64,000 bases of DNA, taken from assembly GCA_028716745.1 (NCBI GenBank), contig JAQUPE010000002.1:29819-93818 (forward strand). Reading direction: 5' to 3'. The notes under the pieces are model-generated. The model was not told the DNA's origin. It ran no database searches and saw only the letters and a program-made list of their open reading frames with translations. How positions within the stretch are numbered: the stretch's first letter is position 1; each line of letters starts with the position of its first letter. Positions 18,827-33,259 of the stretch are shown here, piece after piece. Made by a program: the position numbers and the translations under genes. The DNA comes from Minisyncoccota bacterium. Lineage in GTDB: Bacteria; Patescibacteriota; Minisyncoccia; UBA6257; 02-FULL-45-10c.

Positions 18827-19588
18827 ATGGATTATTTTAAAACAGAAGAAGACTTCAAAAAATTGTGCGGTTATGATATCGACGGCAAGTGGTATCCGCG
18901 CGTTACGAAAATCGTGGAAATAAAATCCAAGCCGGCGCTTTATATGTTTTACGGCGGAATGCCCAGCTACTCCGCCGCCAAAGCCATGACTGCCAAGTCT
19001 GCCACCGAAGGAACATTAATACACGAAACAGTGGAAAAATTTATGATCGGCGAAAAACCGGAAATTGCCGCTGAAATAAAACCGGCCGTTGACGCCTTTC
19101 TTAATTTTTTTGAAATGAACAACATTCAAATAGACAAAGATTTTGTAGAAAAAAGAATTTGCCACCCAGAGCACAGATATGCCGGAACAATCGATACGCT
19201 GGCGCTCATTGACGGAAAATTCGGCGTGCTGGATATAAAAACTTCGCAGGCAATTTACCGGGATTATAATCTGCAGACCTCGGCATATATTGAAGCGCTT
19301 ACATCGGAATTTCCAAACCTGGAAACGCGCTGGATTTTGCGGATTGACCAAACCAGAGACTGCTTGCGCTGCGGCGCAACTCTCCGCCCGAAAGGAGGAA
19401 CCAATAAAATACGCAAAGGAAGGCTTCCTCTCTGCCACGACGGCCAGCACGAGTGGACGGATCTCACCGGAAAAATAGAATTGAAAGAATTTCCTTTTTG
19501 GAAACAAGATTTTCAGGCATTTTTAGGAGCTAAAAAATTATGGGAATGGGAAAACGAACTTTGGCTCCAAAAAATCGGCTATTTATAG
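18827..19588 (+). CDS. PD-(D/E)xK nuclease-superfamily protein with an inserted Cys3-His zinc-ribbon-like segment
   Basis: GTIDTLALIDGKFGVLDIKTS (D...D/E-x-K core) and CLRCG...CHDGQHEW. Confidence 0.5.
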   Translation: MDYFKTEEDFKKLCGYDIDGKWYPRVTKIVEIKSKPALYMFYGGMPSYSAAKAMTAKSATEGTLIHETVEKFMIGEKPEIAAEIKPAVDAFLNFFEMNNIQIDKDFVEKRICHPEHRYAGTIDTLALIDGKFGVLDIKTSQAIYRDYNLQTSAYIEALTSEFPNLETRWILRIDQTRDCLRCGATLRPKGGTNKIRKGRLPLCHDGQHEWTDLTGKIELKEFPFWKQDFQAFLGAKKLWEWENELWLQKIGYL

Positions 19589-19748: not shown

Positions 19749-22700
19749 ATGAAAGTCGGGCACGTCTCGCGTAAAAATTTTGCTCTGACATTTTTTATTG
19801 CTGTTTTTATTTTCGGCTTTTTAGGCCTCATCAATACATCTCTCGCCTGGACTAGCCCCACACAGACCCCTCCCAATGGGAATGGGGTTGTTTCCGCATC
19901 CAGCGGATTTCTTGGAGTCGGCGGAATAACTGCTCCCGCCCAATCTCTTCAAATAAAAGCTTCTGCCGACAACGGAGTTTATCCTCTCGACATTACTCTT
20001 CCCAATGGAAACAGAAGGGCAGCGTTTTATTTAGCCAACGGAAACGGTTCATTTTATCTTTACGATTCTGCTAACGCCACCAAAGTACTTTTAACATCTT
20101 ACATGAACGATCCGAGCTATTTTAATATTACAAACGGAAATTTCGGACTTGGAACAACTGTGCCGACAGAAAAATTTGACGTCAGAGGAACTTCATACTT
20201 CGGAGGAAATACTGATATCTACGGACACATAACTATTAATAACAGCGGCGGCGTAGTAAAAATACAACCCGGGACAGTCACTTCTCCGGGAATTCAAATT
20301 GCCGGCGATCCCAATACCGGAGTCTATAGCCCCGACGCGGACAGAATATCATTTGTCACTGCCGGAACAGAAAGAATATCTATTCTCGCAAATGGAAATG
20401 TCGGAATCGGAACAACCAACCCCACTCAGCCTTTCAGCGCAAAATCTGGAAGCACAGTGCTTAATTTTTCAGGCAGCGGAGAATTTTTAACTAACGCAGT
20501 ATTTTCACAATTGGGAGCAACCAGCTATCTTGGAAATACAATTACCAACTACAGCACCGTCGATGATTTAAAAATAGAACCGCGAACAAATACAAAAAAT
20601 CTTTTATTGGCAACCGGAACAGGAAATGTCGGAATTGGAACAACCGCGCCGATGGGAAAAATTGATTTGGGAACTACGGGAGATTTTATTTTTGGAACGA
20701 CAACAGAAAAAATAAATTTAAGCGGAAATTATTTAAGACTTAAGGCACGAGGAAGCTCTGTTGCTTCACAAGAAATAACTATAAGCAGGCACGATGATAC
20801 CTATGATTATTTAAAACTTGACACTGATTCAATTATTTTTACTTGGAGAAAAGCGGCCGATATTAATGGAAACACAAATATTTATGGCTACTACAATATG
20901 TCCGGCGGAACATATCTTAATATGGGAGGCAGCCCAATTTACGGCAACACCACAGCCTCCGGAAATCTTACTCTCCACTCAACATCGCATGCCACAAAAG
21001 GAATTGTCCGTATTAATCCTTCTGGAGGAAACGTCGGCGTAGGAACCACTGCCCCTTCAGCCGCATTTGCAGTAAGCGGATCTATCTATACCTCCGGCGG
21101 ATATGTATTTCCCGATGGAATATTATTTACAGGAACCGGAACTTTCGGACAATGGTCTAAAACCGGCGCAAACATTTATCTGACTAACAGCTCTGATAAT
21201 GTTGGAATATCAACTACTACTCCAAATCAAAAACTGCGGATTGATTCCGGAAATATTAAATTAAGCGGCGGTTCAGGATTTGCCTGGAAGGGAATATCCG
21301 GATCAGACTCTTTTTCTTCTATGACAAACGGGCTATTTAAATTGTATTACGGCAACGACAACGATGGCTCATTGGTTTTAAATACCAACGCTAGCTCTCT
21401 TACAGAAATTTATGCCACTGGCGCATCCACCGGCTTAACCCTTGGAGTTAATAGCGCGGAAAAAATAAGAATCTCCCCCGCCGGAAATGTCGGTATCGGT
21501 TCAACCGGACCGACAGCCGAACTTGATGCAAGCGGACGCGGAAGATTTTCTCAAGGAATACAAATTACAGGAAATACATCTTTCCCCGCCGACACAGGAT
21601 TAGTTTTAAGAAGCTACGCGGGCTACAAAGAAATTCAATCTTTTAATAGCTCTCCTATCGCTCTCAATCCTGTCGGCAATAATGTCGGAGTTGGAACAAC
21701 CACTCCATATAATACTTTTGCTGTTTCTTCTGCAGGATCCGATCAAACACTTTTTAGATCTACCGGAACTTCCTATGGAACAGTAAATATAGATGTCGGG
21801 GGAACAGGAATTCCTAATTTGCAATTCAGGCAAGCCGGAGTCGCAAAAGCCGCAATCGGAGTTGATGCTGCGGGAAAATTATTATTTGGAATACCAAATA
21901 CCTCCAGCGCAAAAATGCTCATCGATACAAACGGAAATGTTGGAATTGGAATAGCAACGCCAACCGCGCAGCTGCATATTCCATCAAAAATACCGACAGC
22001 AGCAACCGGAGTAGCAACAACTTCAGATAAGCCAATTTCTCTAACTGTCCAGGGAAGATATGCCTATGTAGGAACCGAGGATCTTTCTAATTTTCAAATT
22101 TTTGATATTTCAAACCCTACCGCGCCCTTACTTATGGGGTCCACCGGACTTGGAGCTTATGATGTAATACTCTCTCCCCGTGTTCAGGGAAGTTATGCTT
22201 ACGTATTAAACAATACTGACGCGCTTCTTTATGTCGTTAATGTTTCCAATCCAATAACCCCTGTAATTGTGGGAAGCGTAGCAACTGGAGCATCTCCTTA
22301 CGATCTTTATGTCTCAGGAAAATATGCATACGTAGCAAACTACACTCCAAAAACTCTTCAGATATTTGATATTTCTAATCCGCACTCGCCAATCAGCGTA
22401 GGCAGCGTCGCCACAACGGACAATCCTCAAACTGTTTATGTTCAAGGAAGATATGCATACGTTGCGGGCGCCGATCTTCAAATTTTTGATATTTCAAACC
22501 CTGCATCTCCCGTAAGCGTTGGAAGCTATGCAACAATGGGAAGCACTCAGACCGTAGTAGTTCAAGGAAGATATGCTTATATGGGCAGTTCCGGATCGCA
22601 AGTGCTTGAAGTTCTTGATGTTGCAAATCCCGCAGCCCCATCAAGCGTAACTTGGATTAGCACAGGAGTAAGCACAAGAGTTTATTCTGTTCAAGGAAAA

Positions 22701-24020
22701 TATTTATATGCCGCTAACGGAACTCAATCTACTTTTCAAATTTTTGATATTTCAAACCCTGCATCGCCGACAAGCATGGGAACTGTTTCCACGGAAACCA
22801 CTCCTCAGTATGTCTGCGTCCAAGGAAGATATGCATATATAGTAAATTTTAATTCAGACTCTCTCCAAGTTTTTGACCTCAGCGGATCATACATACAACA
22901 ATTAGAAGCAGGCGGAATAGAAACAGGAACTTTATCTGTTAGAACAAATGCAATTATCAATAATGATTTGGATGTAAGAGGAGGTTTGCAGATAGGAGGC
23001 GGACTGGCAGCATACGGAGCTTCTTCATTCTTCAGTACCAGCACTGACAATATTCTTTCTGTTGCAAGAAAAGGAGGAACTTATCCTACTGTATTTAAAG
23101 AAGGCACAGACGGAGCCTTTATTTTGAATAATAATAATGTTGATGTTTTAACATTAAAATCAGGCAATGTAGGAATAGGAACCACCGCCCCAAGCGCATC
23201 ATATGGAACACTGACCGTCGCCGGTACGGGAGTAACTATTTCAGACGATGGCAATGCCAAATTACAGCTTGGACGATACAGCGGGGCCGCTGACTATTCC
23301 TATATTAAAGCTTCCGCTGCATCGCAAGGATTTAAATTTTCAAATGCCTTGGACACTGCAGATTTGGTTATTATAAAAAATGCCGGTAATGTAGGCATCG
23401 GCGTTGATCCGGGAAGCTATAAACTTAATGTTAACGGACCGCTTAATGCCACAGCTCTATGGGAAAATAGCAGCAGCAAACCAACCGATAACTATGCACT
23501 AAGAGGAACATGGACTGATCTCGGCAGCTACCCTTCCGCCTGCAGCGGTTATAATATGGCAACCGGAATTGGAGATACCCTAACATGCGGATTCAACGCA
23601 TACCCTGTTTACGCAAGCGAAACAACTGCCAATCAACGCATTCAAACCGATACAAATACAAACGTTTATGTTTATCTGGATGAAGTAAGAGATCCTCAGG
23701 GCAGATGGAATTCCGATTATTATTATTCCTGCCCGGTAACCGGCTATTACCAAGTCTCCGCCGGATTTATGGCATCTGATGTAGAAGCCGGCAAATGGGC
23801 TGAAGCCATTATCGCTGTAAGCGGATCGGCAAGATGCGTTCAATCTAAATCTCAATATGGAGTAGGTGGATGGGAAGTTTGGCAAACTTCTTGTAAGGTT
23901 TATTGCACGTCAAGCCAATCCATTTCCTTAATGACTAAAAGCGCCGATCCAGATTACTATATTAGATATGAGCCTGGCATCGGCTATGCCTATATTTCAA
24001 TTTATCTTGCCGGATTATAA
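19749..24020 (+). CDS. giant secreted paralog 1 (1423 aa): signal peptide, GNVGIGTT-type fibre-like repeats, 7 LVIVD-type repeats, conserved connector, divergent Cys-containing C-terminal tip
   Basis: N-terminal hydrophobic segment ending SLA|WTSP. Repeated G-N-V-G-I-G-T-T-x-P units from about aa 30-760. Seven units of G[RK]YAY...LQIFDISNP.SP (LVIVD-like, PF08309-type) at ~22044-22975. Then YIQQLEAGGIETGTLS..., then C-terminal ...YPSACSGY..GIGDTLTCGF.... Confidence 0.8.
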   Translation: MKVGHVSRKNFALTFFIAVFIFGFLGLINTSLAWTSPTQTPPNGNGVVSASSGFLGVGGITAPAQSLQIKASADNGVYPLDITLPNGNRRAAFYLANGNGSFYLYDSANATKVLLTSYMNDPSYFNITNGNFGLGTTVPTEKFDVRGTSYFGGNTDIYGHITINNSGGVVKIQPGTVTSPGIQIAGDPNTGVYSPDADRISFVTAGTERISILANGNVGIGTTNPTQPFSAKSGSTVLNFSGSGEFLTNAVFSQLGATSYLGNTITNYSTVDDLKIEPRTNTKNLLLATGTGNVGIGTTAPMGKIDLGTTGDFIFGTTTEKINLSGNYLRLKARGSSVASQEITISRHDDTYDYLKLDTDSIIFTWRKAADINGNTNIYGYYNMSGGTYLNMGGSPIYGNTTASGNLTLHSTSHATKGIVRINPSGGNVGVGTTAPSAAFAVSGSIYTSGGYVFPDGILFTGTGTFGQWSKTGANIYLTNSSDNVGISTTTPNQKLRIDSGNIKLSGGSGFAWKGISGSDSFSSMTNGLFKLYYGNDNDGSLVLNTNASSLTEIYATGASTGLTLGVNSAEKIRISPAGNVGIGSTGPTAELDASGRGRFSQGIQITGNTSFPADTGLVLRSYAGYKEIQSFNSSPIALNPVGNNVGVGTTTPYNTFAVSSAGSDQTLFRSTGTSYGTVNIDVGGTGIPNLQFRQAGVAKAAIGVDAAGKLLFGIPNTSSAKMLIDTNGNVGIGIATPTAQLHIPSKIPTAATGVATTSDKPISLTVQGRYAYVGTEDLSNFQIFDISNPTAPLLMGSTGLGAYDVILSPRVQGSYAYVLNNTDALLYVVNVSNPITPVIVGSVATGASPYDLYVSGKYAYVANYTPKTLQIFDISNPHSPISVGSVATTDNPQTVYVQGRYAYVAGADLQIFDISNPASPVSVGSYATMGSTQTVVVQGRYAYMGSSGSQVLEVLDVANPAAPSSVTWISTGVSTRVYSVQGKYLYAANGTQSTFQIFDISNPASPTSMGTVSTETTPQYVCVQGRYAYIVNFNSDSLQVFDLSGSYIQQLEAGGIETGTLSVRTNAIINNDLDVRGGLQIGGGLAAYGASSFFSTSTDNILSVARKGGTYPTVFKEGTDGAFILNNNNVDVLTLKSGNVGIGTTAPSASYGTLTVAGTGVTISDDGNAKLQLGRYSGAADYSYIKASAASQGFKFSNALDTADLVIIKNAGNVGIGVDPGSYKLNVNGPLNATALWENSSSKPTDNYALRGTWTDLGSYPSACSGYNMATGIGDTLTCGFNAYPVYASETTANQRIQTDTNTNVYVYLDEVRDPQGRWNSDYYYSCPVTGYYQVSAGFMASDVEAGKWAEAIIAVSGSARCVQSKSQYGVGGWEVWQTSCKVYCTSSQSISLMTKSADPDYYIRYEPGIGYAYISIYLAGL

Positions 24021-24034
24021 ATAAAATATAATTT

Positions 24035-27000
24035 ATGGAAAAAATTAATCAAAAAATAAAATTTATAATCATCGGCGCCGTTTCTATTGCGGGAGCTTTT
24101 GCTTTTTCACAATCGGCTTTTGCCTGGTCAAATCCTGCCCAATCCCCTCCCGCCGAAATAGGATCTCTTAAATTTACCAGCGGCTTTCTCGGCATAGGCG
24201 GAATTGTAACTCCTTCTCAATCTCTCCAAATAAAATCTGCTTCTATTAATGGGGTCTATCCTCTTGATTTATTAAATAATTCTTCCGGCAGAAGGGCGGC
24301 GTTTTATATAGCTAACGAAAATGGCTCGATATATTTTTATGATTCCGCGGGAGCTGAAAAAATATTACTTACTTCTTACTGGGGCAATCCAAGCTACATT
24401 AATACCAGCGGAGGAAATTTTGGAATAGGAACAACAGATCCGCAATATAAATTGGATGTAAAAGGAAGCGTCCGCGCAACCAGCAACATCTGGGTATATG
24501 GCAGCATAATAATGAGCAAGAGCGACGGAGTTATTCAAATGAGGGCCGGGACTGCTGCTCTTCCGGGTATTGTAATCAGCGGTGATGAAAATACCGGAAT
24601 ATTTAGTTCTGGCGCCGATAAATTATCATTTTCCGCTGGCGGCACAGAAAGAATTACTATGCTGGACAATGGAAATGTAGGAATTGGAACAGCTACTCCG
24701 GATTCCGCATTTACTGCTATGGGCGGCACTTTTAAATTACAGGTAAAATCTGGGGAAATATTTACCAGCGGATTTTATGCCCAACCGGGAGGAACAACCT
24801 ATCTCGGCAATACTATATATAATTATGCGACCGATGCCGATTTAACGGTAAATCCCCGCACAACTTCAAAAAATCTTCTATTAGCAACCGGAACCGGAAA
24901 TGTCGGAATTGGAACAACCGCTCCATTAGGAAAACTAGATATTGGGTCAACCGGAACCTTGGCTTTTGGAGCAGCTACCGAAAAAATAGAAAGCATAGGG
25001 CACTCCAGCGGAAAATACATTACTATCACCGCCAGAGGAGGCGCCACTTCGGCAAGATCTATTTGGATGGGAAGAAGAGGAGATGACTATAACTATCTAT
25101 GGATGGATACCGACGCCACTAAATTCTCATTCCAAAAAGGAATGCAGATTGTCGGAGGAAGCAATATTTATGGAAATCTTGTTTTTGGCGGAAGCACATA
25201 TCTTCTCGGCATGGGAGGCAGTCCGATTTACGGAAATAATACATCTTCCGGCAACCTTATTCTTGATTCAACATCAAGCGGAACAAAAGGATTCGTTCTT
25301 ATTAATCCTTCAGGAGGAAATGTAGGCGTGGCCACCACTTCTCCAGGAGCCGTATTCGCGGTTAATGGAACTATTTATTCCAACACAGGATATAAATTCC
25401 CGGATGGAGCGCTTATAACTAATGGCGCAGGGTTAAATTCTTGGACAAGAGCGAATCCAAACACCTACCCAACTACCATCGGCAATAATATCGGCATAGG
25501 AACCTCTTCCCCTGACGAAAAATTGCATGTAGCAGGAAATATTAAATTATCCGGAACAGGAAAATTAATTTGGGGAATGAATTCCTGGATTAATTCTTCT
25601 GATGGATTATTTACTCTCAATGCTCCTTCCAATTCATTAAAACTAGACGTAAATCCAAGCGGCGTTTCTCAAATCCTTACTTCTGGCGCCTCCAGTCTTA
25701 CTCTTGGCGCTAGCAGCACAGAAAGAATTAGAATTTCCGCCGCTGGAAACGTTGGAATAAATTCAACAGACCCAGGCGTTGAATTTGATGTTACCGGACG
25801 AGGAAGATTTTCTCAGGGAATGCAAATTACCGGATGGCAAACATTCCCCTCAGGAACGGGACTTATCATGCGCGATGCCGGCACCTACAAAGAAATACAA
25901 TCTTTTAATTCCACTCCCCTTGCGCTAAATCCTGCAGGAAATAACGTCGGAATTGGAACCACCGATCCAATCGCCACATTTACCGCACAAGGAGCTGTCT
26001 CCGACATAGCCTTATTCAAATCTACCGGCTCATCTTATGGAACAGTAAATATAGATGTCGGAGGAACAGGAATTCCTAATTTGCAATTTAAACAGGCTGG
26101 AACAGCAAAAGCTGCAATCGGAGTTGATTCTCTAGGAAAATTAATATTCGGATTAGCCGATACTTCCGCCATAAAGATGACTATTGATACAAATGGAAAT
26201 GTCGGAATAGGAACAACTACTCCGTTGGCGCAATTATACGTAGCCGGAAGAACAACTCCTGTCCAAACTGGTTCCGTAGGATCAAGTTCGAATATTTATA
26301 ATACTTACATGGCCATTCAAGGAAATTATGCCTATCAAGTAGATGCTGAGGATTCTTCCGTTCTTCAAGTTATTGATATTTCCAACCCGGCCTCTCCAGA
26401 AATTATTTCGTCAACAAATCTTGGTGCTATATCTTTGGATATAGCCGTCCAAGGAAAATACGCATATATTACCGGCCCAGATTTGAAAGTTTTTGATATT
26501 TCCAATCCGAAAGCTCCGGTGAATATTTCTACGCTAGGCATAGTCGGAGATAAAATTTATGTCCAAGGAAAATATGCGTATGTGGCAACAAACGTAAATT
26601 ATGGCGCTCAAACTTTAAAAATTGTTGATATTTCAAATCCATTTGTTTTAACTACTGCCGGCTCCGTTGCAGCAACAAATATACCTACCGATATCTTTGT
26701 CCAAGGAAGATATGCCTACATAGCCGGCTATGACGCAAATTGCAAAATAGCTGATATTTCTAATCCGGCCTCGCCTGTAATAGTCAGTTCTTTTTCGACT
26801 ACCGATGCGGCAACTTCTATTTATGTCCAAGGAAGATATGCCTATATTTCTACAAGCCCGATGAACTCCGGCAATTTATTGGTGTATGACATTTCTAATC
26901 CCGCCGCTCCATCAAATATAGCAACACTAGGTCTGGGCAATGATGTTAAATCTATTTATGCCCAAGGAAGATATGTTTATGCAGGAGTAAGACTTTCTAA

Positions 27001-28291
27001 TAGTGTTCAGGTAATAGATGTTTCCAATCCTGCCACTCCCGTACTCTTCGGATCCGTTGGCGTAACTGCTCCATGGACTGTTTCAGTAAGAGGAAGATAT
27101 GCATATGTAGGAAATGGAAATAGCTTAACGGTCATCGACCTCGGCGGAGCCTACATACAGCAATTGGAAGCAGGCGGAATAGAAACAGGAACTTTGTCTA
27201 TAAGGACAAATGCTTCAATCAATAATGATTTGGATATAAGAGGAGGCTTGCAGATAGGAGGCGGACTGGCGGCATACGGAGCTTCTTCATTCTTCAGCAC
27301 CAGCACTGACAGCGTCCTTACTGTTGCGAGAAAAGGAGCGACATATCCTACTATATTCAAGCAAGGTACGGATGGAGCTTTTGTCTTAAATAATAATAAT
27401 GCCGATGTTATGACGTTAAAATCCAGCAAGATTGGTATTGGAACTACCACTCCTAGCTTGTCTTATGGAACTCTTACTGTTGGAGGTACAGGACTGACTA
27501 TTTCTGACGATGGCAATGCTAAATTGCAGATTGGAAGATATAGCGCGGCTGGAGGCAACGACTATTCATATATAAAGCCGTCAACTGTATCTCAAGGAAT
27601 AAGATTTTCAAACTCTGCCGATACGGATTGGGTTACTATTAAAAACAACGGCAACGTCGGAATCGGAACAACTGATCCGGGCATCTATAAACTCAGCGTA
27701 AGCGGATCGCTTGATTCTACGGGAATATATGAAAACGGGACTACTTTGAATAATACTTATGTAAATAAAAGCACATGGACAACGCACGACAATTATCCTT
27801 CCGCTTGCGGATCTGGATTCGCATCTGGGATTGGAGACTCGCTGACTTGCGGATTTAATACATACACCACTTACGCCACAAAATCAGGCGCCGAACAAAG
27901 AATTCAATCTTATGGCTATGCCGATATTACTATTGATAGACAGGCAGACACGGACCCTAATGGATTATGGACCTCCAATTATTATTACGATTGCCCCGTA
28001 GATGGCTATTATCAAGTAGAAGGCGGATTTATGGCCTCGGACATACAAGCATATTCTCCGACTTCAATCGCCGTTGCGGTAAACGGAACTATTAAGTGCT
28101 TTAATAAAAAACCTCAGCTATCAGGGGCAGGATATTGGGAGTCTTGGAATGTTTCCTGCATTGTTTATTGCACAACAAGCACGCATCAATATATAACCCT
28201 GCAAGCCCAAAGCGACGATGGAGATTTTAAAATCCAGAATGCCGTCGGTGCCGCATATACTTTCATTTCAGTTAACCTTGTAAGCAAATAA
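24035..28291 (+). CDS. giant secreted paralog 2 (1418 aa), same architecture
   Basis: Signal peptide ...SAFA|WSNP. Same repeat architecture, with 7 LVIVD-like units at ~26335-27150. The gap to paralog 1 is 14 nt. Confidence 0.8.
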   Translation: MEKINQKIKFIIIGAVSIAGAFAFSQSAFAWSNPAQSPPAEIGSLKFTSGFLGIGGIVTPSQSLQIKSASINGVYPLDLLNNSSGRRAAFYIANENGSIYFYDSAGAEKILLTSYWGNPSYINTSGGNFGIGTTDPQYKLDVKGSVRATSNIWVYGSIIMSKSDGVIQMRAGTAALPGIVISGDENTGIFSSGADKLSFSAGGTERITMLDNGNVGIGTATPDSAFTAMGGTFKLQVKSGEIFTSGFYAQPGGTTYLGNTIYNYATDADLTVNPRTTSKNLLLATGTGNVGIGTTAPLGKLDIGSTGTLAFGAATEKIESIGHSSGKYITITARGGATSARSIWMGRRGDDYNYLWMDTDATKFSFQKGMQIVGGSNIYGNLVFGGSTYLLGMGGSPIYGNNTSSGNLILDSTSSGTKGFVLINPSGGNVGVATTSPGAVFAVNGTIYSNTGYKFPDGALITNGAGLNSWTRANPNTYPTTIGNNIGIGTSSPDEKLHVAGNIKLSGTGKLIWGMNSWINSSDGLFTLNAPSNSLKLDVNPSGVSQILTSGASSLTLGASSTERIRISAAGNVGINSTDPGVEFDVTGRGRFSQGMQITGWQTFPSGTGLIMRDAGTYKEIQSFNSTPLALNPAGNNVGIGTTDPIATFTAQGAVSDIALFKSTGSSYGTVNIDVGGTGIPNLQFKQAGTAKAAIGVDSLGKLIFGLADTSAIKMTIDTNGNVGIGTTTPLAQLYVAGRTTPVQTGSVGSSSNIYNTYMAIQGNYAYQVDAEDSSVLQVIDISNPASPEIISSTNLGAISLDIAVQGKYAYITGPDLKVFDISNPKAPVNISTLGIVGDKIYVQGKYAYVATNVNYGAQTLKIVDISNPFVLTTAGSVAATNIPTDIFVQGRYAYIAGYDANCKIADISNPASPVIVSSFSTTDAATSIYVQGRYAYISTSPMNSGNLLVYDISNPAAPSNIATLGLGNDVKSIYAQGRYVYAGVRLSNSVQVIDVSNPATPVLFGSVGVTAPWTVSVRGRYAYVGNGNSLTVIDLGGAYIQQLEAGGIETGTLSIRTNASINNDLDIRGGLQIGGGLAAYGASSFFSTSTDSVLTVARKGATYPTIFKQGTDGAFVLNNNNADVMTLKSSKIGIGTTTPSLSYGTLTVGGTGLTISDDGNAKLQIGRYSAAGGNDYSYIKPSTVSQGIRFSNSADTDWVTIKNNGNVGIGTTDPGIYKLSVSGSLDSTGIYENGTTLNNTYVNKSTWTTHDNYPSACGSGFASGIGDSLTCGFNTYTTYATKSGAEQRIQSYGYADITIDRQADTDPNGLWTSNYYYDCPVDGYYQVEGGFMASDIQAYSPTSIAVAVNGTIKCFNKKPQLSGAGYWESWNVSCIVYCTTSTHQYITLQAQSDDGDFKIQNAVGAAYTFISVNLVSK
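27136..27559 (+). repeat. 424-nt tract about 98% identical to 31451..31874 (paralog 2 vs paralog 3 connector region)
   Basis: Direct comparison shows a handful of mismatches over about 424 nt. The identical shadow ORFs 27151..27450 and 31466..31765 in the track reflect the same tract. Confidence 0.85.
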
Positions 28292-28307: not shown

Positions 28308-31300
28308 ATGAACAATAAATTTAAAAATAAAAATATGATTAAGTCTATAATTCTATTTTTGGGAATAATTATTTCTTCAACGGCCTTTGCATGGACTAAT
28401 CCCTCGGCCAATCCGACTCAAGTTACCGGAGCAATTTCAATCAGCGGCGGAAATCTTGGAGTGGGCGGCGTAACTTCCCCATCCCAATCTCTTCAAATAA
28501 AATCTTCCGCCGACAACGGAACTTATCCTTTGGACATTACCGATTCTTCCGGCAACAGAAGAGCCGCTATTTACATGGCTAACGGAAATCCCGAATTAAA
28601 TCTTTTTGATTCCGGCGGCACTCTTCGGGTAAAAATTTCTCCTTATGCCAATAACCCTAGCTATATAAACGTAAGCGGAGGAAATTTAGGAATAGGAACA
28701 ACCGCACCGGAATATAAACTACACATAGCCGGGACCGCTTATTTCGCCGGCGATACTACTGTATATGGAAACTTAGCCATAGATACCTCTGGAGGACAAA
28801 TAAAAATGAGAACCGGCACAGTCAGCGCTCCTGGCCTTCAAATTAATGGCGATCCAAATACCGGAGTCTATAGCGCCGCCGCCGATACTTTAAATGTATC
28901 AACCGCAGGCGCAAATCATATTACCGTGTTACCGTCTGGAAACGTAGGTTTTGGTTCCGGAGCTACCGCCCCAGACGGATCGTTCTATGTTAGAAATGCC
29001 GCAGGCGGCGTATTTAAATTCATGACCAGCGGAGAATTATATGTAGGCGGAACCATAGCCCAGCAAGGCGCCGAGAGCTACATGGGAAGCACTATAGTAA
29101 ATTACAGCTCCAATACTGACCTCACAGTTCAGCCTCGTACCACCTCTAAAAATTTAATACTGGCGACTGGAACTGGAAACGTAGGAATCGGAACTACTTC
29201 TCCTAAAGGAAAACTTGATGTGGGAGCAACAGGAAATATTATTTTTGGAAATGCAACAGAAAAAATAGATCTCAATGGAAATTATGTGAGATTATCCGGC
29301 AGAGGACTTGCCACTTCCGCCAGATCTATTTGGTTTGGCAGATTAAGCGATGCCAGCGACAGCCTGGCCATAGATACCGATGCTGTTATATTTGAATGGA
29401 GAAAAGGTATTGAAATGGTTGGCGATGTAACCCTCAATGGCCAGTTTTCTTTCAGCGGCAGCGGCTACTATCTTATGCTTCAAGGAAAAACAATTTACGG
29501 CGCAACTACAACCTCCGGAAATCTTACTCTTAATTCAACGTCTAATGCTACAAAAGGATTTGTCTTTCTTAATCCTTCTGGAGGAAGCGTGGGCGTAGCC
29601 ACCACTTCTCCAGGAGCCACATTCGCAGTTAACGGAGCTATTTATACAAATACCGGATTTAGATTCCCCGACGGAAGCATGCTGACAAATGGCGCCGGCT
29701 TAGGAGCGTGGTCTAAGTCAGGAAATTATTTATATCTGACCACCAGCTCCGACAATGTAGGCATCGGCACCTCTAGTCCGACAGAAAAACTTTATGTTGA
29801 TTCTGGAAATATCGGAGTAGATGAAGGATATAGCATGCTTTGGGGAGGAGCGGCTATATCAACACTTAATTATAATAATGGTTTGTATAAATTATATTAT
29901 AACGGCGATAACGATGGGTCCTTAGGAATTAATTTGGGAAGCAATATAATAAATATTTATTCTACTGGAAACTCATCTAATTTAACTTTTGGAGCAAACG
30001 ATTATAGCAGAAGAATAGTGATTACTCCTGCCGGAAATATCGGTATCAGTTCGACAGACCCAGGAACAGAATTAGACGTAACGGGAAGAGCCAGATTTTC
30101 TCAGGGAATACAGATAACCGGAGTAACCACATTCCCCGCCGGAACAGGAATTATTTTAAGAGACCAAACAAATTATAAAGAAATCCAATCATTTGATGTC
30201 TCTCCCCTCGCCTTAAACCCCGCCGGCAATAATGTCGGTATAGGAACAACCGCCCCAACTGCCCTATTTATGGTTTCTTCCTCAGGAACCGATCAAGCAG
30301 TCTTTAGATCTACCGATACTTCTTATGGAACCATGGGCGTTGATGTTGGAGGCACCGGCATTCCTAATGTCCAATTTAAACAAGCCGGAACTTCTAAGGC
30401 AGCGATTGGAGTTAATAACGCCGGACAATTAATATTTGGAATAACAAACACCACTGGCCCGAAAATGATTATTGGTTCAAACGGAAATGTTGGTGTTGGA
30501 TCAACAACGCCTATGGCCCAATTGCATGTAGCAGGAAATATACCAAGCGCAGCAGCAGGATCAACTTCTACGGGCAGTACGCCTGGCTCAGTCTTTATCC
30601 AAGGAAGATATGCCTATGTATTAAATTCAGTCGACAGAACCTTGCAGATTTTTGATGTTTCTAATCCTTCCGCTCCAATAAGCAAAGGAACAGCTACTAC
30701 AATAGGAGCATCTCAAGATCGTCCTCAAAATTTATATGTCCAAGGGAAATACGCATACTTAGCAGTTGATCATAATTATGGAAGCGAGCCGGGAACCATT
30801 CAGATTTTTGATGTTTCTAATCCTACTGCGCCAACAAATATAAGCATGGTAACAGCCGGCGATATTCCGGTTTCCGTATACGTCCAAGATAAATATGCAT
30901 ATGTTGTAAATTATGGAACAACAGATACGTTTAAAATTTTCGATATTTCCAATCCTTTCCAACCCACTCAAATAGGAACTATAAATACAACCTATTATGA
31001 TCCTACTTCTGTGTTTGTTCAGGGAAGATATGCTTACATTGTTTATGAAAACTCTTCCAGGCTTGAGATATTCGATATTTCTAATCCCGCAACGCCCATT
31101 AGTACAGGCTCTGTGAATACCGGCGCAAACGGCGCAACGGCAGTCTATGTTCAAGGAAGATATGCGTATATAGCAATGGATGGAAATTTTAAAATCGTTG
31201 ATATTTCCAATCCTGCCGCGCCCGCCAATAAAGGATCATTAAGCATCGTAGGATTTGAAATTGTTGTTCAAGGAAAATATGCATATCTGGCAGATGCAAG

Positions 31301-32555
31301 ATCTAATGTTATTAGAGTTATAGATGTTTCCAATGTTGACTCGCCCGTATTGATAGGATCTATGGGCACAGGAGGCTGGCCAGGATCTTTGGCCGTCCAA
31401 GGAAGATATGCGTATGTAGTAAATGGCACGTCTAATACTCTTCAAGTCTTCGACCTCGGCGGAGCCTACATACAGCAATTGGAAGCAGGCGGAATAGAAA
31501 CAGGAACTTTGTCTATAAGGACAAATGCTTCAATCAATAATGATTTGGATATAAGAGGAGGCTTGCAGATAGGAGGCGGACTGGCAGCATATGGAGCTTC
31601 TTCATTCTTCAGCACCAGTACTGACAGCGTCTTTACTGTTGGGAGAAAAGGAGCGACATATCCTACTGTATTCAAACAAGGTACGGATGGAGCTTTTGTC
31701 TTAAATAATAATAATGCCGATGTTATGACGTTAAAATCCAGCAAGATTGGTATTGGAACTACCACTCCTAGCTTGTCTTATGGAACTCTTACTGTTGGAG
31801 GCACAGGACTGACTATTTCTGACGATGGCAATGCTAAATTGCAGATTGGAAGATATAGCGCGGCCAACGATTATTCTTATTTCAAACTTACCCCGGGATC
31901 ATTTGGATTTAAATTTTCAAGTGCCAACGATTCTTCCGACTTGGTTATTATAGATTCTAATGGAGTAGATCTTGGAACGTCTGATGCTGATAGCCATAAA
32001 CTTGATGTTAATGGAACGCTTAACGCCACAAGCCTTTATGAAAATGGAACGGCTCTCTCCGCTTCTTATGTAGCAAGAAATAATTGGGCAACCCACGACA
32101 GCTATCCATCCGCTTGCGCCGCCGGCACTTTCTTAACCGGAATTGGAGATACCCTAACATGCGGATTCAGCAAAACTCCTTTCTTCTCCGCTAAAACAAG
32201 CTCTCAAGCAGTTTCTCCAAGCCAAACCACATGGACAACCGTTACTGTTCCCGCGGGCAACTATTCATGCAATACCGGATACTACAATGTTTCAGTCAGC
32301 TGGACAGCAGGTTTTGAGAGCGACATAACACAAGGAAGCTGGGCAGAAGCTGCCGTTGGAGTAGACGGATCTCCTAGATGCGTCAATTCTAAACCGTATT
32401 TTTCCTCAAAAGGTAATGAAACTTGGGCAATTTCATGCATGGTTTATTGTTCTGGAGCGCAAACGATTTCTATGATGATGAGGAGCAACGATACCGGCTT
32501 TACCATTCAATCTGGCGCCGGATCTTATCTCTCTGTAGTCTTTGTAAGCTATTAA
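28308..32555 (+). CDS. giant secreted paralog 3 (1415 aa), same architecture
   Basis: Signal peptide ...TAFA|WTNP. 7 LVIVD-like units at ~30603-31470. The gap to paralog 2 is 16 nt. A terminator follows. Confidence 0.8.
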   Translation: MNNKFKNKNMIKSIILFLGIIISSTAFAWTNPSANPTQVTGAISISGGNLGVGGVTSPSQSLQIKSSADNGTYPLDITDSSGNRRAAIYMANGNPELNLFDSGGTLRVKISPYANNPSYINVSGGNLGIGTTAPEYKLHIAGTAYFAGDTTVYGNLAIDTSGGQIKMRTGTVSAPGLQINGDPNTGVYSAAADTLNVSTAGANHITVLPSGNVGFGSGATAPDGSFYVRNAAGGVFKFMTSGELYVGGTIAQQGAESYMGSTIVNYSSNTDLTVQPRTTSKNLILATGTGNVGIGTTSPKGKLDVGATGNIIFGNATEKIDLNGNYVRLSGRGLATSARSIWFGRLSDASDSLAIDTDAVIFEWRKGIEMVGDVTLNGQFSFSGSGYYLMLQGKTIYGATTTSGNLTLNSTSNATKGFVFLNPSGGSVGVATTSPGATFAVNGAIYTNTGFRFPDGSMLTNGAGLGAWSKSGNYLYLTTSSDNVGIGTSSPTEKLYVDSGNIGVDEGYSMLWGGAAISTLNYNNGLYKLYYNGDNDGSLGINLGSNIINIYSTGNSSNLTFGANDYSRRIVITPAGNIGISSTDPGTELDVTGRARFSQGIQITGVTTFPAGTGIILRDQTNYKEIQSFDVSPLALNPAGNNVGIGTTAPTALFMVSSSGTDQAVFRSTDTSYGTMGVDVGGTGIPNVQFKQAGTSKAAIGVNNAGQLIFGITNTTGPKMIIGSNGNVGVGSTTPMAQLHVAGNIPSAAAGSTSTGSTPGSVFIQGRYAYVLNSVDRTLQIFDVSNPSAPISKGTATTIGASQDRPQNLYVQGKYAYLAVDHNYGSEPGTIQIFDVSNPTAPTNISMVTAGDIPVSVYVQDKYAYVVNYGTTDTFKIFDISNPFQPTQIGTINTTYYDPTSVFVQGRYAYIVYENSSRLEIFDISNPATPISTGSVNTGANGATAVYVQGRYAYIAMDGNFKIVDISNPAAPANKGSLSIVGFEIVVQGKYAYLADARSNVIRVIDVSNVDSPVLIGSMGTGGWPGSLAVQGRYAYVVNGTSNTLQVFDLGGAYIQQLEAGGIETGTLSIRTNASINNDLDIRGGLQIGGGLAAYGASSFFSTSTDSVFTVGRKGATYPTVFKQGTDGAFVLNNNNADVMTLKSSKIGIGTTTPSLSYGTLTVGGTGLTISDDGNAKLQIGRYSAANDYSYFKLTPGSFGFKFSSANDSSDLVIIDSNGVDLGTSDADSHKLDVNGTLNATSLYENGTALSASYVARNNWATHDSYPSACAAGTFLTGIGDTLTCGFSKTPFFSAKTSSQAVSPSQTTWTTVTVPAGNYSCNTGYYNVSVSWTAGFESDITQGSWAEAAVGVDGSPRCVNSKPYFSSKGNETWAISCMVYCSGAQTISMMMRSNDTGFTIQSGAGSYLSVVFVSY
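31451..31874 (+). repeat. partner copy of the 27136..27559 near-identical tract
   Basis: See the 27136..27559 entry. Confidence 0.85.
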
Positions 32556-32574
32556 TACCTAAACTAATAAAAAA

Positions 32575-32600
32575 CACCGCTTATCGCGGTGTTTTTTTGC
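32575..32600 (+). terminator. intrinsic terminator after the giant-gene triplet
   Basis: caccgc-ttat-cgcggtg hairpin followed by ttttttt. Confidence 0.65.
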
Positions 32601-32842: not shown

Positions 32843-33259
32843 TTATATCTTTTTTATCTCTTCTAATAAAACGCTGACCGAATCAACTATTTTTACTTTC
32901 GGATAAAAGAAAAAAATATTTGTATGCAAATGCTTATTTCCTACTACAAAAATCTTCTTATTTTCCGCTAAAGCAATGCCAAACTCGGCATGCATGCCTG
33001 TTCCTGCCCTATCGGTAATTAAAACAAAAACATCGCACTTTTTTATTCCGGCCAAAGCCAGCTTAGCGATTCTCGTTGCCCGTCTTGGATCTTTATCGCA
33101 AGGCTGGCCTATTAGTTGCTCAGTCCAATCAAAAGTCGTGGAATGGCCGGATTTCCTCAATTTTTCGGATAATCGCCTGACTAAACCCGCCCTTTTTGTT
33201 CTTGAAGCTATATAAAATTTCATTTGATAATAATTTTTTAGATAAACCCCCGCTTGCAA
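32843..33259 (-). CDS. nucleoside 2-deoxyribosyltransferase-like family protein (probable start at MKFYIASR, 33223)
   Basis: MKFYIAS...CDVFVLITD...GTGMHAEFGIALAENKKIFVV resembles the PF05014-type Rossmann-like pattern. Tentative. Confidence 0.4.
   Translation of the reverse strand: MQAGVYLKNYYQMKFYIASRTKRAGLVRRLSEKLRKSGHSTTFDWTEQLIGQPCDKDPRRATRIAKLALAGIKKCDVFVLITDRAGTGMHAEFGIALAENKKIFVVGNKHLHTNIFFFYPKVKIVDSVSVLLEEIKKI

Follow-up and report, generated by a model that had tools for sequence, protein, structure and literature searches.

Three tandem giant proteins of a Candidatus Pacebacteria genome as probable adhesive surface fibres with different C1q/TNF-like heads

Examination of a 64,000-nucleotide (nt) stretch of contig JAQUPE010000002.1 (64 kb, hereafter the window) uncovered three giant genes, g1, g2 and g3, which lie in tandem and head-to-tail, and match PHN74_01185, PHN74_01190 and PHN74_01195 exactly, in a Candidatus Pacebacteria metagenome-assembled genome belonging to the Candidate Phyla Radiation (CPR, or Patescibacteria). 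We propose that they probably code for trimeric, Sec-exported adhesive surface fibres of this organism, with three different binding heads. Each chain consists, in this order, of a predicted signal peptide, a stalk of ~700 amino acids (aa), an LVIVD propeller, a neck, a 27-aa Cys-loop and a jelly roll of ~140 aa. The three intervals in which an earlier note, made from the sequence of this stretch, had located divergent C-terminal tips proved to be the 3'-terminal parts of three open reading frames (ORFs) that lie in tandem on the + strand and code for 1423, 1418 and 1415 aa, namely:

19749..24020, + strand: g1, giant paralogue, PHN74_01185, 1423 aa (ORF list and translation; exact match to P0002)
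24035..28291, + strand: g2, giant paralogue, PHN74_01190, 1418 aa (100% identity to P0001)
28308..32555, + strand: g3, giant paralogue, PHN74_01195, 1415 aa (ORF list and database match)

Overall identity between the copies is 54-56%. The longest ORF of g3 begins at 28308; the NCBI version (P0003) has a later start and counts 1406 aa, 9 codons less (28308-28334).

The last ~140 aa of each protein very likely fold as a jelly roll of the C1q/TNF superfamily, a placement in which we have high confidence because relatives passing Pfam thresholds, profile matches in the PDB, an AlphaFold2 (AF2) model and Foldseek all agree. The heads are located as follows:

23598..24017, + strand: C1q/TNF-like jelly-roll head of g1, aa 1284-1423, with Cys 1328, 1363, 1382 and 1386 (AF2 model m90f4d6b24a8a, Foldseek, profiles)
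27857..28288, + strand: C1q/TNF-like head of g2, aa 1275-1418 (alignment to g1)
32169..32552, + strand: C1q/TNF-like head of g3, aa 1288-1415, with ~13 residues fewer, the D-P-x-G-x-W loop being gone

The C1q/TNF-like jelly roll suggested in the earlier note, which had also advised a check of the fold, is therefore borne out by profile homology and by Foldseek comparison of the AF2 model; the aromatic-rich strands quoted there, CPVTGYYQVSAGFMASD and DCPVDGYYQVEGGFMASD, are found in the proteins.

The link between the tips and this superfamily rests on a profile built from the three tips only, which was searched against 1.84 billion representative proteins (E<=1e-3) and matched 327 of them. Matches over the full-length domain include P0157 (E 3e-10), P0145, P0124 and P0129. 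P0157 passes the Pfam C1q family (PF00386) across the full model, with 28.5 bits for a cut-off of 23.7; P0129 reaches 83.9 bits with C1q and P0124 97.8 bits with BclA_C (PF18573), while P0145 passes C1q, BclA_C and TNF (PF00229). A further profile, drawn from a 40-sequence alignment of the three tips and 37 related domains, is dominated by these relatives. When compared with the PDB, its best match is cerebellin-1 (1.6e-18, from three domains of ~1e-3 each), and it also matches adiponectin, C1q, C1QL1-3, collagen X NC1, Eiger and EDA. Compared directly with Pfam and NCBIfam, the tips had no informative match, and a search of PDB sequences gave only a weak match, 8ond, which concerns the fibre part of the query. 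With one tip, a word-indexed protein search had no match; with a 5-sequence tip profile, it retrieved only P0135 and P0138 (on contigs of 1-2 kb), P0270 and P0271. In other respects, P0124, P0129, P0137, P0139, P0151 and P0159 are large chains carrying 4-6 tandem C1q/BclA_C-like domains, unlike the usual single C-terminal head.

From the 40 sequences, AF2 returned an all-beta model of the tip with a predicted local distance difference test (pLDDT) of 85 and a predicted template-modelling score of 0.79, residues 40-174 being mostly above 90; this run superseded a mediocre one from the three sequences alone (pLDDT 68). Foldseek comparison of the model with the PDB yielded 287 matches at E<=1e-3; virtually every one of the top 50 is a C1q/TNF-type head, with target-normalised template-modelling (TM) scores of 0.65-0.80. 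The best match is C1QL2 (4qpy, E 9e-8, TM 0.77), and the others include EDA-A1, C1QL3, the central spike knob of phi812, C1q, the C1q domain of Caprin-2, BclA (1wck and 2z5w) and BC2L-C (2wq4). Among the viral models of BFVD, there were 513 matches at the same threshold (E<=1e-3), many of them named C1q domain, L-shaped tail fibre, minor tail protein or tail-fibre receptor-binding protein.

With regard to residues, 46 columns are conserved in half or more of the tip relatives, and g1 keeps 26 of them, g2 25 and g3 16. The columns kept in g1 and g2 include D-P-x-G-x-W, C-P-V-x-G-Y-Y-Q-V, S-C-x-V-Y-C and the C-terminal Y-x-[FI]-S-[IV]-x-L strand. A relaxed C1q signature, D-x4-W-x5-Y-x5-G-Y-Y-Q-V, is retained in g1 and g2, and its first half is gone in g3.

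The tips open with a shared motif, YPSAC-x(9-10)-GIGD(T/S)LTCGF (aa 1255-1282 in g1, 1248-1274 in g2 and 1260-1287 in g3), which the earlier note had described as the entry to the variable region. It is present in all three copies, but it lies outside the jelly roll and is a separate, widely distributed repeat module, the Cys-loop:

23511..23594, + strand: Cys-loop module of g1, W1255-F1282, C1265...C1280
27776..27856, + strand: Cys-loop module of g2, W1248-F1274, C1258...C1272
32085..32168, + strand: Cys-loop module of g3, W1260-F1287, C1270...C1285

We regard the tip as two modules because the matches of the tips-only profile split in two. Among the best 150 of the 327 proteins, 77 match positions ~2-33 alone, many with several tandem copies, and 70 match positions ~35-175 alone, many again with tandem copies; only P0135 and P0150 join Cys-loop and jelly roll as in g1-g3. 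Within the same 150 proteins, the Cys-loop is found 185 times in 79 proteins, including P0121-P0123 and P0125-P0128, with the 27-aa consensus W-T-x-[LHI]-x-[NS]-[YF]-P-x-A-C-x-A-G-Q-[FY]-V-x-x-[IVL]-G-D-T-L-T-C and a 14-residue loop from Cys to Cys. Fibre motifs of the GNVGIG type occur in only 16 of the 77 Cys-loop-only proteins, and proteins rich in this module have no match in Pfam, NCBIfam or PDB sequences. The Cys-loop might be a disulfide-stapled connector, or an independent binding unit.

Six of the 7 (g1), 7 (g2) and 6 (g3) cysteines per chain belong to the tip, all six within the last ~160 residues. Their spacing is kept between the copies, as had been noticed before: 15, 14 and 15 residues between C1 and C2, 19, 20 and 19 between C4 and C5, and 4 in each case between C5 and C6. 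Among 85 related domains, C3 and C6 occur together in 41 of 43 cases (Fisher p 1.7e-10, uncorrected for phylogeny), whereas C4 and C5 are found as a pair in the tips, P0135 and P0138 and nowhere else. Since the cysteines of each pair co-occur, we infer that the jelly roll has disulfides C3-C6 and C4-C5; C1-C2 would close the loop.

The remainder of the chain is described here for g1, with the following features:

19749..19847, + strand: predicted Sec signal peptide, with a basic n-region, ~20 hydrophobic residues and S-L-A | W (read from the sequence)
19848..21998, + strand: N-terminal tail-fibre-like stalk, aa ~34-750, with recurring GNVGIGTT.P motifs
22011..22883, + strand: LVIVD-repeat beta-propeller, aa ~755-1045, within the stalk (Pfam PF08309, E 7.7e-44)
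22884..23393, + strand: conserved neck/stalk, aa ~1046-1215, with 76-100% identity between copies (sliding identity)

In g2 and g3, equivalent N-termini end in AFA | W, and A33 and W34 are invariant among the copies; we take these N-termini, judged by eye, as predicted Sec signal peptides. The ~90 residues that follow share 56-72% identity between copies. The stalk matches tail fibre families of PHROG (phrog_18345, 2e-26; phrog_9942, 1e-23) and, in tblastn searches, fibre or 'chaperone of endosialidase' proteins of cyanophages, with at most 39% of the protein covered and ~28% identity. Furthermore, aa 420-491 of g1 match PDB 8ond, the crystallised stalk of the mosaic adhesive trimer (MAT) protein Bd2133 (phmmer, E 9.8e-8). 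These similarities support a phage-tail-fibre-like or MAT-like stalk, homologous to the stalks of MATs. The propeller has 6-7 repeats in each copy, with equivalents in g2 and g3 (E about 1e-40 to 1e-44). With regard to the neck, the segment of g2 covering aa 1125-1226 (~27407-27712) shares 50-60% identity with short stretches of P0067 (2263 aa) and P0074 (850 aa), and no similarity beyond this segment was detected between g2 and either protein; the neck itself may be a mobile connector module. The Cys-loop repeat, the insertion of a propeller into the stalk and the concerted evolution of the neck are without described precedent.

The closest known counterparts are the MAT fibres of Bdellovibrio, which are surface-exposed trimers of ~1,000 aa with swappable tips, either S74 or non-S74 (Caulton et al. 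2024, PMC10769870). Their layout comprises a signal peptide and then a beta-rich domain that is conserved and spans ~130 aa (PMC10769870). Bd2439 and Bd2734 carry non-S74 tips, which are TNF-like and contain disulfides; Bd2439 binds N-acetylglucosamine (GlcNAc), and the best structural matches of Bd2734 are 2WQ4 and 4QPY (PMC10769870). Like MATs, g1-g3 have a signal peptide (predicted here), a length of ~1,000-1,400 aa, a phage-tail-fibre-like stalk with sequence similarity to Bd2133 (8ond), several paralogues in one genome, a proximal part that is conserved and a C-terminal tip that can be swapped. A TNF/C1q-like jelly roll is one of the tips that MATs can have, and both structures matched by Bd2734 are among the Foldseek matches of our model. 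No match to S74 (PF13884) was found in g1-g3, nor any SDxxxK motif in their last 300 aa, and the three proteins thus combine a MAT-type stalk with a non-S74 tip. In contrast with MATs, they belong to a CPR bacterium and not to a predatory bdellovibrio, a LVIVD propeller is inserted in the stalk, the tip is preceded by a Cys-loop, and the genes are in tandem and subject to gene conversion.

The exchange of modules among relatives is in line with the 'mosaic adhesive trimer' logic of Bdellovibrio, and the sequences display deep mosaicism only. A search with full-length g2 retrieved 117 relatives of the stalk, which have in common the N-terminal fibre in ~95 cases, the propeller in ~22 and the neck in ~20, whereas the tip of g1-g3 is present in none of the 117. 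Many of them end with an S74 chaperone sequence, and others with Ser/Thr-rich tails or other beta-rich domains. Conversely, the C1q-like module is found on other scaffolds: after a phage tail collar domain (P0140), in 4-6 tandem copies (P0124, P0129), or in small stand-alone proteins.

Other systems share the head. In the exosporium of Bacillus anthracis, a C-terminal C1q-like head caps the long surface filament made by BclA, and its fold matches that of our model (1wck, E 7e-6, TM 0.65). Relatives of the tips pass the BclA_C threshold, although the tips themselves do not match this family. The likeness is confined to the head: g1-g3 have no spore context and no collagen repeats in their stalk, with no G-X-Y run of at least four units in g1 or g2, one chance 4-unit run in g3, and no Collagen Pfam match in any of the three. 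The comparison with BclA-type caps made in the earlier note is accordingly right as to a jelly roll at the C-terminus of a fibrous stalk, but not as to a collagen-like fibre. The same fold occupies the distal end of phage fibres, as in a 'C1q domain containing protein' of uncultured Caudovirales, the L-shaped tail fibre of Xanthomonas phage RiverRider and the phi812 knob (9eul). Phage fibres also have stalk repeats in common with g1-g3; the latter differ in being cellular genes with predicted signal peptides and a housekeeping neighbourhood. Finally, the ten-strand jelly-roll topology of the tips is also that of metazoan C1QL2/3, cerebellin, adiponectin and EDA-A1, and of the TNF-like lectin BC2L-C-Nt from Burkholderia. 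The G-x-Y-x-hydrophobic strand of C1q/TNF heads is kept as G-Y-Y-Q-V, but the tips share only 8-14% identity with these proteins, have another disulfide pattern and no collagen stalk, and do not conform to the strict signature. By analogy, g1-g3 would work like a non-S74 MAT fibre or a C1q-tipped phage tail fibre.

We propose that the chains would be exported via Sec and would then trimerise on the cell surface. In analogy with BclA, collagen X NC1, phage tips and MATs, the C-terminal jelly roll would nucleate the trimer and set the register of the three chains, and would also form the cell-distal, probably glycan-binding, head, stabilised outside the cell by the three disulfides. The heads have diverged most in their loops, which would give rise to three binding specificities, and gene conversion keeps the neck uniform. 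The target would likely be the surface of a host or partner cell, since life attached to other cells is expected of this organism. In Patescibacteria, large proteins targeted to the surface have already been considered as candidates for host interaction (PMC13059738), and we found nothing relevant in the literature on C1q or LVIVD in CPR. A bolder and tentative version, which we hold to be less probable than the proposal itself, would see in the tandem trio the host-range cassette of a CPR episymbiont, with a stalk and neck kept uniform by conversion, three heads exploring host ligands, and the Cys-loop as an undescribed, widespread extracellular repeat. Host recognition and attachment in CPR/Patescibacteria are largely obscure beyond type IV pili, and g1-g3 represent concrete, clonable candidates for host recognition. 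The C1q-like head itself is neither a new fold nor a new idea; what g1-g3 would bring is a known adhesive-fibre design in a new lineage, which takes the phage-like fibre with swappable adhesive tips beyond the predatory Bdellovibrio, into a host-dependent lineage unrelated to it.

Protein evolution is faster in the tip. The last 147 alignment columns show a mean pairwise identity of 35%, and no other window of 147 columns is as low (median 52%, maximum 87%). The propeller comes next (41-45%), and the neck reaches 85%. The earlier note had spoken of a hypervariable tip on a conserved stalk. The tip is indeed the least conserved region, but the contrast is moderate (35% versus 41-52%); the neck is indeed conserved, but partly by a recent gene-conversion tract between g2 and g3, which largely accounts for its contrast with the tip:

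27135..27549, + strand: gene-conversion tract in g2, partner g3 31450-31864, 415 nt with 8 mismatches
31450..31864, + strand: gene-conversion tract in g3, partner g2 27135-27549, 415 nt with 8 mismatches

The edges of the tract are sharp, its flanks are ~60% identical, and the proportion of synonymous differences (pS) falls to 0.04-0.09 within it, compared with 0.6-0.7 elsewhere. Over part of the same neck, g1 (~22872-23050) is 83-93% identical. In addition, 35 nt are identical between g1 (23561-23595) and g3 (32135-32169) inside the Cys-loop (GIGDTLTCGF), in surroundings of ~60% identity, and the pS of this pair is lowered to 0.37-0.46 over alignment columns 1231-1320. Together, these two observations suggest an older or smaller conversion event.

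Ratios of non-synonymous to synonymous substitution (dN/dS, Nei-Gojobori) are highest along the gene in the C1q-like module, with 0.36-0.52 against 0.24-0.34 elsewhere (propeller 0.28-0.34, N-terminal fibre 0.24-0.29), and 0.14-0.30 in the neck. The diversifying selection put forward in the earlier note, with dN/dS along the genes as its check, is not demonstrated by these values. Several findings weigh against our proposal of adhesive fibres. All dN/dS values are below 1, pS is near saturation at 0.6-0.7, and there is no positive evidence of adaptive diversification. The tips agree with the C1q/TNF superfamily in fold and profile but fall short of direct Pfam thresholds, as the three C-termini of 230-238 aa have no match to C1q, BclA_C or TNF (hmmscan, Pfam, E<=10). 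The strict pattern F-x5-[ND]-x4-[FYWL]-x6-F-x5-G-x-Y-x-F-x4-[CV], which we take to be the PROSITE-type C1q signature, is absent from the tips and from their 37 bacterial relatives. A propeller of ~290 aa is an unusual element halfway along a trimeric fibre, and the binding module could be this propeller itself; the Cys-loop region of the AF2 model has low confidence (pLDDT ~45), and the genes are carried by one genome alone. Regarding this last point, no orthologue was found in a full-length search of 5.8 billion clustered proteins, and the best match beyond the paralogues has 33% identity over 26% of the query.

The most serious competing explanation, to which we give perhaps one chance in a handful, is that the head is a mere folding and trimerisation cap, drifting under neutral or relaxed constraint since an old triplication, with binding taking place elsewhere, for instance in the propeller. 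Collagen X NC1 and the C-terminal domain of BclA have been shown to act as such registration caps. The dN/dS below 1 throughout and the modest excess of divergence in the tip relative to the propeller (35% versus 41-45%) suit a cap, and the propeller, itself divergent, is a typical ligand-binding scaffold. Strands of the tip are more conserved than non-strand positions (36-47% versus 25-39% identity), as would result from purifying selection on the fold, a pattern that is expected for any beta-sandwich. On the other hand, C1q/TNF heads that end a fibre usually serve for trimerisation as well as for binding, as in receptor-binding tips of phages or in the case of Bd2439 and GlcNAc (PMC10769870), a whole loop has been remodelled in g3 by a 13-residue deletion, which suits an altered specificity, and in the wider family the tip behaves as an exchangeable module. 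We thus retain adhesive fibres with three binding heads as the preferred interpretation.

It is very improbable that g1-g3 are tail-fibre genes of a phage or prophage and not cellular surface proteins. This explanation would account for the matches of the stalk to tail-fibre PHROGs and cyanophage fibres, the resemblance of the tip to C1q-type tips of phages, and an upstream ORF (18827-19588) matching phage exonuclease PHROGs. However, the phage matches do not exceed 39% coverage at ~28% identity, each protein has a predicted Sec-type signal sequence, which virion fibres do not have, and no other structural phage gene was seen adjoining. The flanking genes have housekeeping functions (GT2 glycosyltransferase, RluA-type pseudouridine synthase, ABC-F ATPase, BipA/TypA, SecA and the ribosome hibernation factor HPF), and the GC content of g1-g3 is the same as that of their surroundings. 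Genomic context and signal peptides led us to reject the prophage origin; the locus is cellular.

Programmed hypermutation, by a diversity-generating retroelement (DGR) acting on the tips as variable regions or by another such system, is hardly credible even though DGRs are frequent in CPR genomes and the most divergent part of the proteins is C-terminal, for the fold is C1q/TNF and not the C-type lectin or Ig typical of DGR targets, and the copies differ throughout the domain, also by indels; within the window, we reject it, in agreement with the earlier note, because no template-repeat-like copy of any tip was found besides the paralogous tips (blastn, word size 7), nor any Y[AVIMLC]DD motif in the six frames.

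With regard to the neighbourhood of the genes, the ORF at 18827-19588 (+ strand, 253 aa) lies upstream of g1 with a gap of 160 nt; its PHROG match is phrog_298 (E 3e-22), and a Pfam search with it gave no match. On the other side, the following element separates g3 from a convergent minus-strand ORF (32843-33259):

32569..32597, no strand assigned: bidirectional terminator-like hairpin with a 12-bp stem and T runs on both sides, 14 nt 3' of g3

The spacers between g1 and g2 and between g2 and g3 measure 14 and 16 nt, and contain no hairpin comparable to this one. Since the spacers are so short and a strong terminator-like hairpin is found only after g3, the three genes are most simply regarded as one transcription unit.

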